Shown here piece by piece: positions 9,701-12,700 of a DNA stretch of 64,000 nucleotides. The first letter of the stretch is position 1, and each line of letters starts with the position of its first letter. Source of the DNA: Acidimicrobiales bacterium. Its GTDB lineage: Bacteria > Actinomycetota > Acidimicrobiia > Acidimicrobiales > VFJN01. The position numbers and the translations under genes are program-made. The DNA lies in contig DATCLS010000102.1 in assembly GCA_036563805.1 (NCBI GenBank), forward strand, positions 67,903-131,902, in the 5' to 3' direction. The notes beneath the pieces were generated by a model. It saw only the letters and a list, made by a program, of their open reading frames with translations, made no database searches and had not been told where the DNA came from.

Positions 9701-12700
9701 CGCCCGGCTGCCCGACTACATGGTGCCGAGCGCGTTCGTCGTGCTCGACCAGCTGCCGCTGACGCCCAACGGCAAGGTCGACCGGGCGGCGCTACCGGCA
9801 CCCGCTCGGCCCGGGACGGCGGGCGGCGACGGCGCGGGCGGTACCGGGGGCGGGGCGGGCGCCGTCGACGCCCTCCGCACGCTTTTCGCCGAGGTGCTGG
9901 GCCTGCCGGCGGTCGGGCCCGACGACAACTTCTTCTCGCTGGGCGGCGACAGCATCGTGTCGATCACGCTGGTCGGCCGCGCCCGCCGCCAGGGCTTCGA
10001 CCTGACGCCCCGCGACGTCTTCGCCCACCCGACGCCGGCCGGCCTGGCCGCCCTCGTGGCCGACCGGGACGCCGGCGACCGGTCCGGGGCGGGGCCCCTG
10101 GTGCCGCCGCCGGCCGCCCACCGGCTACGGGAGCTGGGCGCCGGCGAGGCGGAGTCGCTGGTGGTCCCGGCGCCGCCCGGGGTCGACGCCGAGCGCGCGG
10201 CCGAGGCCGTGCGGGCGCTCGTGACCCGCCACGACGCCCTGCGCCAGCGCCTCACCCGCGCCGGCGACCGCTGGGCGCTCCACGTCGACCCCGTCGACTC
10301 CCCGCCCGCCGCCCGACCGGGCACCACGCACCGGAACGCCGTCGCGGGCGAGCCGGCGCGGGAGGCGGACGACGGCCTCCGGTCCGTGCCGGTGGCCGGG
10401 CTGGCGGCCGCGGCCCGCCAGGCCGTCGTCGGGGCCGAGGCCGAGGCGGCCGCCCGGCGGCTCGACCCCGAGGCCGGCGCCGTGCTCCAGGCCGTGTGGC
10501 TGGACGCCGGCCCGGGCGAGGCCGGCGAGCTGCTGCTGGTCGCCCACCCGCTGGCGGTCGACGCCCGCTCGTGGGCGATCCTGGCCGAGGAGCTGGCCGC
10601 CCTCTGGGCCGGCCGCCCGCTCCCGCCGGTGGCGACGCCGCTGCGGGCCTGGACCCGGACCGCGGCCGAGGCCGCCCACGACCCCGCCCGCCTGGCCGAG
10701 CTGGACCACTGGATCGAGGTCCTGGCCCCGGGTGCCGCCCTCCCCGCCGCCCCCGCCAACCGGGAGGCCCCCGCTGAGGGGGCGGTCACGGTCGAGCTGA
10801 CGGTCGAGGAGACGGCGGGGGTGCTGGCGGCCGCCGGGGCCGTGCGGGCCACGGTGGACGAGGTGGCGCTCACCGCCCTCCAGCGGGCGGTCGGCGCGCC
10901 GCTGGTCGTCGACGTCGAGCGGCCCGACCGCCCCGACCTCGGCGCCGACGTGGCGCGGACGGTCGGCCCGCTGGCCGCCGTCCACCCCGTCCGCCTCGAC
11001 CCGGGCCGCGCCACCGGCCTGGCCGCGCTGAAGCGGTGCAAGGAGCAGGTCCGGGCCGCGCCGGGCGGCGGTGCCGGGTTCGACCTGCTCCGCCACCTCA
11101 ACCCCCAGACGGCGCCGGCGCTGGCCGCCCTCCCCCGGCCCGCGGTCCTGTACCGGCGTCGCCCGGCTCCCGGGACGGGCCCCGACCCGACGCCGGTGCC
11201 CGTGGGCGACACGGACCCCGGTCCCTACCGGCTCCGGGTCACGGCGTCGCTGGACGCCGCCGACGCCGGCGGCGTCGGCACCCCGCCCCGGCTGCGGGCT
11301 CGGTGGGACGGCGACCCCGAGCTGGCCGAGCGGTGGCGCGCCGAGATGCGGGCGCTCGGCGCCGAGGCGGCGACGACGCCGCCGGGCGCCGGCGGCCTCA
11401 CCCCCTCCGACCTCCGCCACCTCGCCCTCGACCAGGAGGCCATCGACCTGGTCGAGGCCGCCTTCCCCCAGGGCGTCGAGGACATCTGGCCGCTGTCACC
11501 GCTCCAGGAGGGCCTCTACTTCCACGCCACGTTCGACGACGCCGCCCTCGACGTCTACACGGTCCAGGATCACTTCGACCTGGCCCGGGCCGTCGACGTC
11601 GACCGCCTGCGGGCGGCGATGGCCACCCTGCTCGCCCGCAACCCGACGATGCGGGCCGCCTTCCTCGGCGACGGCCTCGCCCGCCCGGTGCAGGCCATCG
11701 TACGGGCCCACGACGTGCCGCTCACGGTCGTCGACCTGTCCGACCTCGATCCCGAGGCCCGGGCCCGCCGGTTGGACGAGATCATGGAGGCCGAGCGGTC
11801 GCGCCGCTTCGACCTGGCCCGGCCGCCGCTGCTGCACCTGACCGTCGTCCGGCTCGGCCCCGAGCGCCACCGGATCGTGCTGTCCCGCCACCTGCTCCTG
11901 TGGGACGGCTGGTCGGGCCAGCTGGTGTACGGCGAGCTGTTCGCCCTGTACGAGCGGGCCGGCGACGACACCGGCATCCCCCGCTCCGTGTCGTACGCCG
12001 ACTACCTGGCCTGGGTCGGCGAGCAGGACGAGGGCGCGGCCCGGGCCGCCTGGCGGGAGGCGCTGGCCGGCCTGGAGGAGCCCACGCTGGTCGCCCCGGC
12101 GGCCGAGGCGCTCCAGCCGGTGCTTCCTGACACCTGCGTCGTCGAGCTGCCCGAGGACCTCAGCGCCCGCATCGTCGCCGCCACCCGGGCCCACGGGCTC
12201 ACGCTCAGCACCGTGCTCGGCGGGGCGTGGGCGATCGTGCTCGGCGGCCTCACCGGCCAGGACGACGTCGTGTACGGCCTCACCGTCTCGGGCCGGCCGG
12301 CCGAGGTGCCCGACGTCGAGGGCATCGTCGGCCTGTTCCTCAACACCGTGCCGGCCCGGGCCCGCCTCGACCCCGGCGAGCCGGTCCTCGACCTGCTGGC
12401 CCGGACCCAGGCCGACCGCACCGCTCTCCTCCCCTACGAGCACCTGGGCCTCGGTCTGATCCAGCGCGAGGCCGGCCACGGCCAGCTGTTCGACACGCTG
12501 TACGTGCTCCAGAACTTCCAGGGGCGGGGCGAGCTCGGCGACGACCTGCCCGCCTTCCTGGAGGAGCACGGCGTCGAGGGCTACGGCACCACCGACGCCA
12601 CCCACTACGCCCTCACGCTCGTGGTCCGGCCCGGCGAACGGCTCCGGGTCCTGCTCGCCTTCCGGCCCGACCTGGTCGACCGGCCTCTGGCCGAGACCGT

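Follow-up and report, generated by a model that had tools for sequence, protein, structure and literature searches.

A probably inactive epimerization-fold domain is retained in albachelin-type siderophore synthetases of two actinobacterial classes

The second module of an albachelin-type hydroxamate-siderophore synthetase in an Acidimicrobiales metagenome-assembled genome (MAG) carries an epimerization (E) domain, here denoted E1*, that has lost all of its catalytic motifs and that occurs in the same dead state, between a carrier (T) and a condensation (C) domain, in synthetases of Amycolatopsis, where it evolves under purifying selection. Given a predicted fold that is intact, we consider it probable that E1* is an E-fold pseudo-enzyme domain, which has lost its acid/base machinery and is retained as a structurally required, non-catalytic part of a T2-E*-C3 unit, and that the serine at position 2 of the product is left in the L configuration.

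Results

The synthetase and its genomic context

The nonribosomal peptide synthetase (NRPS) gene lies in a 64,000-nucleotide stretch of DNA, the whole of which is referred to as the window, and encodes six modules with the order C-A-T / C-A(Ser)-T-E* / C-A(hOrn)/MT-T / C-A(Ser)-T / C-T-E / C-A-T-E (Table 1). The protein is collinear with an Amycolatopsis orthologue, P0075, at 51% identity over ~5,700 aa, and five of its six modules agree with the scheme published for the albachelin NRPS, C/A/T-C/ASer/T/E-C/AOrn/MT/T-C/ASer/T-C/ASer/T-C/A/T/E (PMC4599437), the departure being module 5, which is C-T-E without an adenylation (A) domain. The assignment of serine to module 2 in a preliminary description of this DNA was borne out by the Stachelhaus code of A2, which reads DVWHFSLVD in the Amycolatopsis orthologue. 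The T2 domain bears FFSLGGDSI at 9930-9956, the GGDSI signature being one that usually marks the carrier partners of E domains. The code of A3 presumably denotes N5-hydroxyornithine (hOrn), an assignment that we base on the coelichelin code DMENLGLINK.

Siderophore-related genes in the window comprise a Peripla_BP_2 lipoprotein, an ABC transporter, an IucB-type GNAT, and FUR; no ornithine monooxygenase or MbtH gene was seen in the window, and the contig ends ~570 bp upstream of it. The Amycolatopsis locus, a cluster of the hydroxamate-siderophore type, contains a formyltransferase and a monooxygenase and has a complete gene set for N5-hydroxylation, acylation, and transport. No racemase was seen in either the window cluster or the Amycolatopsis cluster. 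The sole P450 in the window is found 27 kb downstream amid unrelated genes and the Amycolatopsis cluster has none; besides transport genes, no candidate partner gene is common to the two clusters.

Table 1. Positions of the synthetase, its domains around module 2, the former catalytic sites of E1*, and the adjoining transport gene in the window
Feature	Position	Strand	Details
Albachelin-type six-module NRPS	3588..27407	+	ORF 3096..27407; likely GTG start 3588, overlapping the AT gene stop
A2 adenylation domain	8283..9800	+	Ser-specific; Stachelhaus code DVWHISLVDK
T2 carrier domain	9843..10061	+	GGDSI signature
E1*, catalytically dead epimerization-fold domain, module 2	10038..11324	+	HMM envelope aa 2315-2743
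N-terminal PxxHW(L/F) site, now PAAHRL	10110..10127	+	His retained, Trp gone
HHxxxDGxS site, now HPLAVDARS	10545..10571	+	aa 2484-2492; His 10545-10547 CAC, Pro 10548-10550 CCG
EGHGRE site, now ERPDRP	10917..10934	+	First Glu retained; His, Gly, and last Glu gone; short deletion after
TVGW(F/L)T site, now TVGPLA	10959..10976	+	Sequence reading
GxGYG site, now GGAGFD	11067..11084	+	Further change, absent from the preliminary description
(F/V)NYLG site, now LYRRRP	11148..11165	+	Sequence reading
In-cis linker from E to C	11325..11477	+	Well preserved; 45.7% identity to Amycolatopsis
C3, DCL-clade condensation domain, LWDGWS subtype	11478..12800	+	Pfam 249.8 bits
A3 with embedded methyltransferase	12903..15740	+	Code DMWNVLLIN, N5-hydroxyornithine-like, giving N-alpha-methyl-hOrn
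Siderophore-type periplasmic binding lipoprotein (Peripla_BP_2)	27404..28477	+	Start overlaps the NRPS stop codon

Loss of the catalytic motifs

The four core changes initially described for the module-2 E domain (HP, ERPDRP, TVGPLA, and LYRRRP) were all found in place, and the span that had been proposed for the domain, 10100-11400, is close to the HMM envelope. The N-terminal PxxHWL motif, which had been called unrecognisable, is degraded through the loss of its Trp, though not wholly, as PAAHRL keeps the His. Relative to E2 and E3 of the same protein, E1* has three internal deletions (~14 aa ahead of the EGHGRE site, ~4-6 aa beyond it, and ~16 aa following RLDPG) and a low-complexity insertion of ~25 aa that is disordered in an AF2 model. 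Scoring against the E family pointed the same way: on TIGR01720, an E-specific model of 155 profile positions with a curated cut-off of 74.2 bits, E1* reached 35.7 bits, about half of the cut-off, over profile positions 5-47 only, compared with 95.8 bits for E3. On the Pfam Condensation model PF00668, E1 scored 57.9 bits, which exceeds the cut-off of 30.6, and E2 and E3 scored 94.1 and 112.5, respectively. In a background set of 333 E-type domains from the 172 best-matching NRPS proteins, 298 retain all four catalytic motifs and six, E1* included, have lost all four; the catalytic base, which is the second His of HHxxxDG, is retained in 325 of the 333 and is Pro in E1*. With its catalytic His gone, and all the other E-specific cores as well, E1* is very unlikely to carry out canonical epimerization.

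Conservation of the dead state and selection

The same dead E domain follows the Ser module in the albachelin-type synthetases of five Amycolatopsis genomes, i.e. P0075, which was recovered by an exhaustive HMMER search, and four named genomes, within the block A(Ser)-T(GGDSI)-E*-C-A(DMWNLGLI), in which the C domain is marked by a motif of 11 residues. Its motifs in these genomes read HP[VAI]LLD[AV]RS, TVGALT or TIGALT (Trp lost), and LRYDGR, with no EGHGRE, and the second His of HHxxxDG is thus Pro in 6/6 dead-E sequences. The remnants at the EGHGRE site are -HGR-, -HER-, or HG-- in Amycolatopsis, unlike the ERPDRP of the window, and such lineage-specific remnants imply that drift at this site came once activity had been lost. 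Non-catalytic motifs (LLQAVW, PVAT.LR, HW.E.LAP, EV.LTAL, and LLR.LN.QT.P.LA) have been kept, as have helices and strands. In the Amycolatopsis enzyme, E* is the only internal E domain. A word-index protein search with E1* returned short fragments only, at no more than 40% identity and dominated by Ala-rich low-complexity candidates, and no close relative of the window E1* was recovered by an exact 8-mer genome scan or by a metagenome scan with two-sequence alignment.

Among the five Amycolatopsis orthologues, the dN/dS of E* was 0.313 (95% CI 0.254-0.381; bootstrap maximum 0.457), compared with 0.136 for C3, 0.174 for A2, and 0.223 for C2; this estimate covers Amycolatopsis only, and for the window copy, constraint is deduced from its cross-class identity and from the relative-rate comparisons. 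Identity between the window and Amycolatopsis was 43.4% for E*, 42.4% for C1, 45.0% for C2, and 49.9% for C3. Omega was near-uniform over the two lobes of E* (0.31 vs 0.32), no lobe-specific constraint or conserved surface patch was found in the domain, and such uniformity points to no interface in particular. In Tajima tests, 69-90 unique changes were counted in E1* vs 26-38 in the intact E2 (p 3e-3 to 7e-8), and Amycolatopsis E* has a similar, ~2-3 fold excess of lineage-specific substitutions over intact relatives. E* also leads the domains of the protein in gap openings (17, vs 1-10 in the others). Constraint on E* is thus relaxed but far from neutral, and the domain is being maintained. 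The characterization of E1* as a decayed relic in the preliminary description is not supported by these data, given that the dead domain is kept at the same position in five Amycolatopsis at a dN/dS of 0.31, where ~1 would be expected under neutrality, and that its cross-class identity (43%) is that of the presumably functional C1 (42%) and C2 (45%).

Origin of the inactivation

The E* domains of the window and of Amycolatopsis have in common the HP change, DARS, the loss of Trp, and a 14-aa deletion that E2 lacks. A neighbor-joining (NJ) tree on Dayhoff-recoded sequences recovered a dead-E clade with 61.5% support, compared with 3.5% for E1*+E2, while the raw amino-acid NJ tree paired E1* with E2 (38% vs 25%). 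The possibility that E2 is a recent duplicate of E1*, which would entail two losses, was rejected: the shared deletions and the Dayhoff recoding mark the raw-NJ pairing as a compositional artefact. Recent gene conversion between E1* and E2 was ruled out by a nucleotide identity of at most 0.75 in any 40-codon window. The dead-E clade could itself reflect long-branch attraction. Most probably, the H-to-P inactivation was a single event that took place in an ancestor shared by the Acidimicrobiales and Amycolatopsis lines, or that preceded a transfer from one line to the other.

Predicted fold and the junction with C3

The AF2 model of E1* (pLDDT 85.8, pTM 0.85, low confidence in loops only) was built on an alignment of intact homologues, which biases it towards the family fold, and cannot show the stability of the mutant domain. 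The top Foldseek matches of this model were PvdL E2, TycB3-E, and TycA-E (TM 0.75-0.78), as well as GrsA PCP-E, and they include the cross-module structures PvdL PCP2-E2-C3-A3 and BacC cis-E-COM-C. E1* is therefore predicted to form an intact, V-shaped and CAT-like two-lobe fold of the E type between a T domain and a DCL-clade C domain. The linker that follows it aligns with the PvdL E2-C3 junction and is close to the window's own E2-C6 linker.

The downstream condensation domain

C3 carries an 11-residue motif at 11883-11915 from which the second His is absent. Compared with relatives in the PDB, it scored 174-208 bits against the DCL domains of PvdL, McyB, SrfA-C, and TycB, vs 82 against the LCL domain of TycC. 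The preliminary description had noted that C3 keeps the N-terminal signature of domains that normally follow E domains; the signature is present and C3 falls in the DCL clade, but the signature is non-diagnostic, as C2 shares it with no E domain upstream. Decay of C3 itself was ruled out by its Pfam score, by its having the lowest dN/dS of the C domains, and by its motif being that of a conserved subtype. An A domain with a DMWN..LIN code always comes directly after C domains of this LWDGWS subtype, which occurs alongside catalytically intact E domains in ~15 other lines. For enzymology, this conserved, His-poor C subtype with its link to hydroxyornithine modules may hold more interest than E1* itself.

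Discussion

Were E1* to act as a non-catalytic part of the T2-E*-C3 unit, L-Ser would be loaded onto T2 by A2, an N-acylated residue 1 would be added by C2, and the acyl-X1-L-Ser on T2 (GGDSI) would pass or meet the inert E* without inversion at C-alpha. The chain would then be donated from T2 to C3, whose His-poor LWDGWS type would be dedicated to N5-hydroxyornithine acceptors, and be joined by C3 to N-alpha-methyl-hOrn on T3. Following the H-to-P loss, the other catalytic motifs would have gone on to drift independently, with the fold, reading frame, and E-C junction held in place by selection, and E* would have been retained for a structural reason. A structural or docking role had been suggested from the outset, and everything found here is compatible with it.

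On the evidence of the sequences, Ser-2 may reasonably be taken to stay L. No D/L assignment of the albachelin serines was found in the literature searched. Since an albachelin-like NRPS of Herbidospora has a Ser module entirely without E (PMC4599437) and albisporachelin contains L-Ser (PMC6024995), a junction from L-Ser to methyl-Orn appears to be viable in this family; the Herbidospora enzyme shows that a junction from Ser-T to C-hOrn can work without an E domain, and the E* scaffold is therefore not universally required.

One alternative is that E* is a neo-functionalised recruitment platform, comparable to the glycopeptide X-domain or the siderophore interface domain, that docks an enzyme acting in trans on the T2- or T3-bound intermediate, such as an N5-acyl or formyl transferase, an Orn N-hydroxylase, an MbtH-like protein, or a partner NRPS, or that it assists the chemistry of C3. 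In its favour, a catalytically dead C/E-fold domain is under purifying selection, the E1* model matches X-domains (TM 0.69), the domain adjoins a non-canonical C domain that lacks the catalytic His, and both clusters contain hydroxamate-tailoring genes (formyltransferase and monooxygenase in Amycolatopsis, the IucB-type GNAT in the window). However, E* presents neither a conserved surface patch nor lobe-specific constraint, the two clusters have no candidate partner gene in common apart from those for transport, and the traits of X-domains, i.e. placement in the last module before TE and P450 partners in the cluster, are absent here; moreover, LWDGWS C domains pair with intact E domains in ~15 other lines, so a dead E is not needed by them. 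We regard recruitment as unlikely.

It is somewhat less likely still that E* is functionless, an in-frame spacer that drifts freely and is kept since a frameshift or stop in it would abolish the modules that follow. The domain does have the highest dN/dS and the most indels in the protein, 2-3 times more substitutions than the intact E2, a disordered low-complexity insertion, and a Herbidospora homologue in which it is missing, all as expected of a neutral relic. Yet the upper confidence limit of its dN/dS is 0.38, no bootstrap replicate exceeds 0.46, its identity between two actinobacterial classes is at the level of working C domains, and its helices, strands, and non-catalytic motifs have been conserved.

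A bolder idea, to which we assign a similarly low probability, is that E* and the His-less LWDGWS C domain act jointly, with this C subtype, which always stands ahead of unacylated N5-hydroxyornithine modules, acylating the side-chain N5-hydroxylamine of hOrn rather than its alpha-amine, which would place a hydroxamate in the backbone, and with the dead E of albachelin-type lines re-used, without catalysis, for positioning or recruiting in that step. If true, this would make the subtype a functional class of C domain that had so far gone unrecognised, and would give a pseudo-domain descended from E a new role; a literature search for hydroxamate-forming C domains returned nothing relevant.

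Production of D-Ser at position 2, whether by an E1* that is active with non-canonical residues, by E2 or E3 acting on T2, or by A2 loading D-Ser made by a racemase, is highly improbable; under it, the DCL-type C3 would still be supplied with D-Ser. The residue before hOrn is D-Ser in erythrochelin, C3 groups with DCL domains, T2 retains the GGDSI signature, and a D residue precedes hOrn in the related line of salinichelin (D-Arg, PMC5776446). Against this, all six dead domains have Pro for the second His, nothing is left of the Glu and His of EGHGRE, the Asn and Tyr of FNYLG, or the Trp of TVGW, and the remnants vary between lineages as unconstrained former active-site residues would. The other routes to D-Ser fare no better, as neither cluster has a visible racemase, the Amycolatopsis enzyme is without a second internal E, and the DCL-type C2 works with no upstream E at all. 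Lastly, an assembly or sequencing artefact, a concern for any metagenome contig at ~20x coverage, can be dismissed, as the region is base-for-base identical in an independent ENA contig record, differs by many in-frame substitutions and codon-multiple indels with no frameshifts, has a GC3 (0.978) like that of neighbouring domains, and shows the same dead state in Amycolatopsis isolate genomes.

The retention of E1* as a non-catalytic E-fold domain bears on both annotation and engineering. Genome-mining tools and the published albachelin annotation call the domain plain 'E' (PMC4599437), and structure predictions would therefore give D-Ser at position 2 of albachelin-type products, a call that, judging from the motifs, is very probably wrong; checking for HP…D[AV]RS in the absence of EGHGRE flags the dead E and corrects such D/L predictions. 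E* also exemplifies, in numbers, a tailoring domain that is dead and yet held by purifying selection (omega 0.31), in two actinobacterial classes, which is relevant to why NRPS domains resist simple excision and to where synthetases should be cut in engineering, and suggests that T-E-C is best handled as one unit.

Comparison with known systems

Among the closest counterparts are the albachelin synthetase of Amycolatopsis (MIBiG BGC0001211) and orthologous enzymes, which share with the window the module order, A codes, module-3 MT, starter C, terminal E, and dead module-2 E. The window enzyme differs in its module 5, a C-T-E that lacks an A domain and carries an additional, intact E, and in the KS-ACP-AT set that precedes its gene and suggests a longer acyl cap; its cluster, which is cut by the contig end, has an IucB-type GNAT and no visible formyltransferase.

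More broadly, E1* nests in the E clade of active Ser/Thr/Arg-E-C-hOrn blocks of other actinobacterial hydroxamate-siderophore NRPSs, with which it has a ~16-aa deletion in common. These blocks, which have a homologous T-E-C(LWDGWS-type)-A(DMWN..LIN) order, are present in Rhodococcus loci, an exochelin-like Mycolicibacterium NRPS, and salinichelin, and also in erythrochelin and coelichelin. Unlike E1*, the active E domains of these blocks have HH, E[GR]HGR[ED], TVGW, and FNYLG intact, and the upstream residue is D where it has been measured (salinichelin D-Arg, PMC5776446).

Non-catalytic recruiters with a C/E fold are another point of reference, reportedly including the glycopeptide X-domain (Haslinger, 2015) and the siderophore interface domains (Reitz, 2019). 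The X-domain of glycopeptide synthetases sits between T and TE of the last module, where it recruits the cluster-encoded Oxy P450s. As in E1*, the fold of X and interface domains is that of the C/E superfamily and the HHxxxDG motif is degenerate, and these domains are kept for a non-catalytic role. E1*, in contrast, is found in module 2 of 6 with a C domain next to it, has no P450 or beta-hydroxylase partner in either cluster, and is clearly E-derived, its best structural and sequence matches being E domains.

Wrong D/L calls from sequence also arise in the NRPSs for Pseudomonas lipopeptides and a Delftia metallophore, whose idle dual E/C domains do not perform the predicted epimerization (PMC10531924; PMC13122642). 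The dual domains are bifunctional, usually keep their motifs, and are idle for reasons left unexplained, whereas E1* is a stand-alone domain that has lost its catalytic residues.

Inactive E domains are themselves already known, e.g. in LgrA of the linear gramicidin synthetase (F-A-T-C-A(Gly)-T-E*), in which the E domain is annotated as inactive and is nonetheless retained (PMC10510592; PMC8150014). Like E1*, it is a dead E-fold domain that follows a carrier domain and has been retained in a megasynthetase. An LgrA-style explanation, i.e. a dead E after Gly, is ruled out for the window by the textbook Ser code of A2: the LgrA domain follows an achiral Gly, for which epimerization is meaningless, whereas E1* follows a chiral Ser. 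The two also differ in placement, the LgrA domain being at the C-terminus of its subunit and facing the next protein and E1* lying in cis between T2 and C3.

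Domain organization of the synthetase

Six modules were assigned to the giant NRPS of the window (G+C ~77%) by motif mapping and per-domain Pfam scans; the domain of interest, E1, is the epimerization (E) domain of module 2. The 5' part of the mechanical ORF is a read-through of ~165 Arg/Gly-rich codons that overlaps the AT gene in another frame (3096-3587), and the most plausible start is GTG 3588. The public gene call (GTG 3744, 7887 aa) truncates the first condensation (C) domain, losing a 15-residue N-terminal motif that aligns from residue 5 of P0075, an albachelin-type synthetase of Amycolatopsis. 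The carrier (T) domain of module 5 must be charged by another adenylation (A) domain, A4 and A2 both being Ser-specific, and a D residue would be expected in the product at position 5, not position 2. C4 (16476-16502) and C5 (19701-19727) both read HHVATDEWS, with Glu replacing the usual Gly of HHxxxDG (P0075 C5 has HHVATDEGS); their N-termini are LCL-type, and each is preceded by a GGHSL-type carrier domain.

Features of the synthetase and its flanking genes (window coordinates)
Feature	Position	Strand	Remark
ABC transporter end			upstream of KS
KS	1362-2498		KS-ACP-AT set directly before NRPS
ACP	2524-2799		91 aa
AT	2809-3591		stop overlaps likely NRPS start (GTGA at 3588)
Giant NRPS ORF	3096-27407	+	mechanical ORF, start GTG 3096
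Module 1			C1(starter)-A1-T1
Module 2			C2-A2-T2-E1
E1	10038-11324		catalytically dead
PxxHWL	10110-10127		PAAHRL in E1
HH	10545-10550		HP in E1 (CAC CCG; former HHxxxD)
EGHGRE	10917-10934		ERPDRP in E1
TVGW(L/F)T	10959-10976		TVGPLA in E1
(V/F)NYLG	11148-11165		LYRRRP in E1
Module 3			C3-A3/MT-T3
C3	11478-12800		
Module 4			C4-A4-T4
Module 5	19293-22415		C5-T5-E2, without A domain
C5	19293-20645		
T5	20763-20990		
E2	21048-22415		fully intact
Module 6			C6-A6-T6-E3, without TE
Peripla_BP_2 lipoprotein	27404-28477		start overlaps NRPS stop (ATGA)
Two CitE/HpcH-family lyase-like genes	28580-29449, 29452-30507	-	
IucB/MbtK-type GNAT	31470-32108		
PaaX, fatty-acid desaturase	within 27404-34618		
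FUR-family regulator	34172-34618		

The downstream genes fit an iron-regulated, N5-acetylated, possibly unsaturated-acyl siderophore, and the KS-ACP-AT set points to a fatty-acyl cap with enzymes of its own, which would make the product an amphiphilic analogue of albachelin; as these genes precede the NRPS, a longer acyl chain is the probable N-cap. The source contig is ENA ERZ4232226 NODE_220 (106,645 bp), and the window begins ~570 bp from its end, so that the siderophore cluster is cut upstream; no gene for an Orn N-monooxygenase or MbtH turned up within the window. An M13 peptidase in the flank matches a protein of an 'Acidimicrobiales bacterium' MAG at 100% identity, followed by relatives from Acidimicrobiales and Iamia. 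Judged by offsets, the window holds 9 nt more than NODE_220 between positions 2000 and 3000, probably at ~2770-2799 in the Ala/Ser repeat (…AASAASAASA) of the ACP C-terminus, a short tandem repeat whose length seems to differ between assemblies or strains. The offset is otherwise constant to position 12,400, and E1 with its linker (10038-11477) is base-for-base identical. An antisense ORF of 431-457 aa covers all of E1 (10125-11495, minus strand); its GC at the three codon positions (0.98/0.59/0.88) is a mirror image of the sense frame, so it is a product of the high GC content rather than a gene.

Correspondence with the albachelin synthetase

P0075 (7420 aa) is collinear with the window NRPS, with 51% identity over ~5,700 aa, and follows the same domain order as far as module 4, with a dead E domain (HPILLDARS) and a C3 bearing the 11-residue motif. 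Its domain string is identical to the published albachelin organization, C/A/T-C/ASer/T/E-C/AOrn/MT/T-C/ASer/T-C/ASer/T-C/A/T/E (PMC4599437), albachelin itself comprising N-alpha-acetyl-hfOrn, three Ser, N-alpha-methyl-hOrn and a cyclic hOrn (N5-hydroxyornithine) (PMC6151521). The A-domain codes agree between the window and P0075 in each corresponding module, and the window enzyme is therefore best classed as an albachelin-type synthetase. The P0075 cluster is of textbook hydroxamate-siderophore type (formyltransferase, Lys/Orn N-monooxygenase, NRPS, MbtH, Peripla_BP_2, two ABC exporters and two FecCD permeases), and P0075 is ~90% identical to loci of A. decaplanina, A. coloradensis, A. orientalis and A. 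azurea. The systems differ in module 5, which is C-A(Ser)-T without E in albachelin and Amycolatopsis and C-T-E without A in the window, where the intact E is extra; in the KS-ACP-AT set, found ahead of the NRPS only in the window; and in the GNAT of the window, where no formyltransferase is visible, as opposed to the formyltransferase of the P0075 cluster.

Loss of catalytic motifs in E1

The lost cores and the altered N-terminal motif listed in the preliminary description are all present as it placed them, and GxGYG has additionally become GGAGFD. Identity of E1 is 50% with E2 and 43% with E3, the E domains of modules 5 and 6, from which it differs by three deletions and one disordered insertion. 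Against Pfam Condensation it scores 57.9 bits (E2 94.1, E3 112.5), and against the E-specific TIGR01720, the kind of family-model comparison proposed at the outset, 35.7 bits, under the cut-off of 74.2 (E3 95.8). Its GC3 (0.978) is the same as that of the adjoining domains. The A2 code, DVWHISLVDK, is a Ser code, which agrees with the substrate first assigned to module 2. Among 333 E domains of the best-matching NRPSs, all four cores are kept in 298 and all lost in only six, so the state is rare and not noise.

The low-complexity insertion of E1 (~10320-10370, aa ~2410-2425; AF2 pLDDT <50) is missing from the Amycolatopsis dead E and is a lineage-specific loop expansion in a dead domain. Unrelated degenerate E domains occur in the background proteins P0009, P0028, P0072, P0086 and P0152 (motifs HQLAADAAS/ADPGRL/TVGPLT, HQLAVDHSS, HGLIVDAAS, HQLAIDATS and HRLVVDGAS), so that E catalysis has been lost repeatedly with the domain kept, in actinobacterial and other NRPSs; in such domains the residue following DG/DA, normally Val, tends to vary too.

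Constraint on the dead domain

The preliminary description called E1 a decayed relic. The catalytic cores are indeed gone; a decaying relic is not supported, and four lines of evidence indicate a domain that is dead but maintained: the conserved dead state, dN/dS, deep conservation and the predicted fold. All five Amycolatopsis sequences have a dead E at the equivalent position after a Ser module, with HP[VAI]LLD[AV]RS, T[VI]GALT and LRYDGR and without EGHGRE (remnants -HGR-, -HER-, HG--). Across these five orthologues (Nei-Gojobori, 2000 bootstraps) dN/dS was 0.313 for the dead E (95% CI 0.254-0.381; bootstrap maximum 0.457), 0.223 for C2 (0.176-0.284), 0.174 for A2 (0.136-0.219) and 0.136 for C3 (0.103-0.175). 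The dead E exceeded C3 and A2 in all replicates (P < 0.001) and C2 at P = 0.02, and its omega was roughly equal in both lobes (0.31, 0.32); strong codon bias, if it lowered dS, would raise omega, which makes the test conservative. Constraint is thus relaxed ~1.4- to 2.3-fold in Amycolatopsis, yet far from neutral.

Between window and Amycolatopsis, the dead E is 43.4% identical (346 aligned positions), compared with 42.4% for C1, 45.0% for C2 and 49.9% for C3, and has the most indels (17 gap openings). Relative-rate tests gave 69-90 unique substitutions in E1 vs 26-38 in intact E2 (p 3e-3 to 7e-8), with a similar excess, ~2-3 fold, in the Amycolatopsis dead E. The former catalytic sites diverge (ERPDRP vs -HGR-; LYRRRP vs LRYDGR) while the non-catalytic framework is common to both, the pattern expected if catalysis went first and the scaffold was then retained. 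The AF2 model of E1, built from an alignment of intact homologues, has pLDDT 85.8 and pTM 0.85, and only its loop insertions are modelled at low confidence. The structures that it matches best are genuine E domains (PvdL E2, TycB3-E, TycA-E, BacC cis-E-COM-C and GrsA PCP-E; TM 0.73-0.78), with X-domains ranking lower (TM 0.69).

One inactivation or two

In an exhaustive HMMER search for relatives of E1, which recovered P0075, identity to E1 did not exceed 49% for any E domain. In a neighbour-joining tree of raw residues, E1 grouped with E2 at 38% bootstrap vs 25% for a dead-E clade; Dayhoff-6 recoding raised the dead-E clade to 61.5% and lowered E1 with E2 to 3.5%. Ala content is ~21-22% in both E1 and E2, and no gene-conversion tract was found between them. 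E1, the Amycolatopsis dead E and the intact E of P0041 all lack 14 residues ahead of the EGHGRE site (near-identical gap in P0033), and a ~16-aa deletion is common to E1 and most E domains preceding hOrn modules; E2 has neither deletion. These deletions, the recoded tree, the shared HP, DARS and Trp loss, and the whole-protein collinearity favour a single ancestral inactivation, and we consider it fairly probable from these comparisons that catalysis was lost once, in the ancestor of the window and Amycolatopsis domains. The dead-E clade could instead be a product of long-branch attraction. Since the hosts belong to different Actinomycetota classes, horizontal cluster transfer is as likely as vertical descent.

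The condensation domain after E1

C3 was first noted for an N-terminal signature of C domains that follow E domains, and homology bears this out: it is DCL-type, scoring 174-208 bits with PvdL, McyB, BacC, SrfA-C and TycB vs 82 with LCL TycC. As evidence for a D-donor the signature is weak, because C2 has a 13-residue DCL-type N-terminus and T1 a GGDSI signature (6513-8165), typical of carrier domains partnering E domains, yet module 1 has no E. Either an E domain was cleanly lost from module 1 or, in this NRPS family, such signatures are no guide to D-donors. C2 of the window also has an FHHL doublet, missing in Amycolatopsis.

In the 11-residue motif of C3 (11883-11915) the second 'catalytic' His is Leu. 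Decay of C3 was rejected, as it belongs to a conserved subtype and has the lowest dN/dS of the C domains. In ~17 of ~295 DCL-type C domains of the background set, x[H/Q][L/V/F]xLWDGWS replaces HHxxxDGxS. Besides the window, the subtype occurs at loci L003-L019, L021, L024, L026-L030 and L037 and in proteins P0033, P0040, P0041, P0050, P0055, P0060, P0063, P0079, P0080, P0088, P0092, P0093, P0103, P0133 and P0154. The second His is never present, and nearly all of these domains directly follow an E domain; Rhodococcus copies (NRQFLLWDGWS), conserved across many species, keep neither His. Every downstream A domain present in sequence has the code DMWN[LV][GL]LI(N), several with an embedded MT; DMWNLGLIN is one residue different from the coelichelin hOrn code, DMENLGLINK, and so presumably specifies an hOrn-like residue. 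The coelichelin hfOrn code DINYWGGIG occurs in a Rhodococcus locus. In ~15 other lines the LWDGWS-type C is fed by an intact E, with Thr, a Ser-like or another residue upstream; only in albachelin-type lines is it paired with a dead E.

In these products no N5-acyl group is carried separately by the hOrn, while three hydroxamates are required for tris-hydroxamate coordination, which raises the suspicion that this subtype may acylate the N5-OH (hydroxylamine), giving a backbone hydroxamate; a literature search found no description of such a subtype. Salinichelin has the active arrangement, a module-2 E and D-Arg followed by unacylated hOrn (PMC5776446). A second variant, x[H/Y/F]HQ[M/I/L]xxDGWS with HQ for HH (P0057, P0140, P0113, P0119, P0159, P0086), recurs after intact E domains, with an upstream A code that is mostly DVEE[IL]GV.T, and may be another substrate-linked C subtype.

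Proposed role of the dead domain and comparison with known systems

In the proposed mechanism, T2-bound L-Ser would escape epimerization, the dead E would act as a folded, inert part of a T2-E-C3 unit, and C3 would then join the chain to N-Me-hOrn. Solved structures with E and C in cis, PvdL and BacC cis-E-COM-C, are among the top structural matches, and the linker joining E1 to C3 has been kept well. The best explanation for retention is that cutting ~430 aa out of a T-E-C junction that has co-evolved would be costly. Recruitment of a partner by an X-domain-like E1 is less likely, as nothing specific favours it. The Herbidospora albachelin-like NRPS has a Ser module without any E (PMC4599437), which makes the scaffold lineage-contingent and no universal requirement.

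What is new is that the module-2 E of the albachelin family, listed as a plain 'E' with inactivity unmentioned in the literature found, is dead, that this state is common to two actinobacterial classes, and that the constraint on a dead E can be given in numbers; the hOrn-linked, His-poor C subtype may merit separate study. Inactive E domains are already known, and E1 is another case of that phenomenon: idle epimerization is reported for siderophore and lipopeptide NRPSs (PMC13122642, PMC10531924), and LgrA has an inactive E after a Gly module (PMC10510592). An explanation of the LgrA type is ruled out here by the A2 Ser code, as the E domain of LgrA is inactive after Gly, whereas E1 is inactive after Ser.
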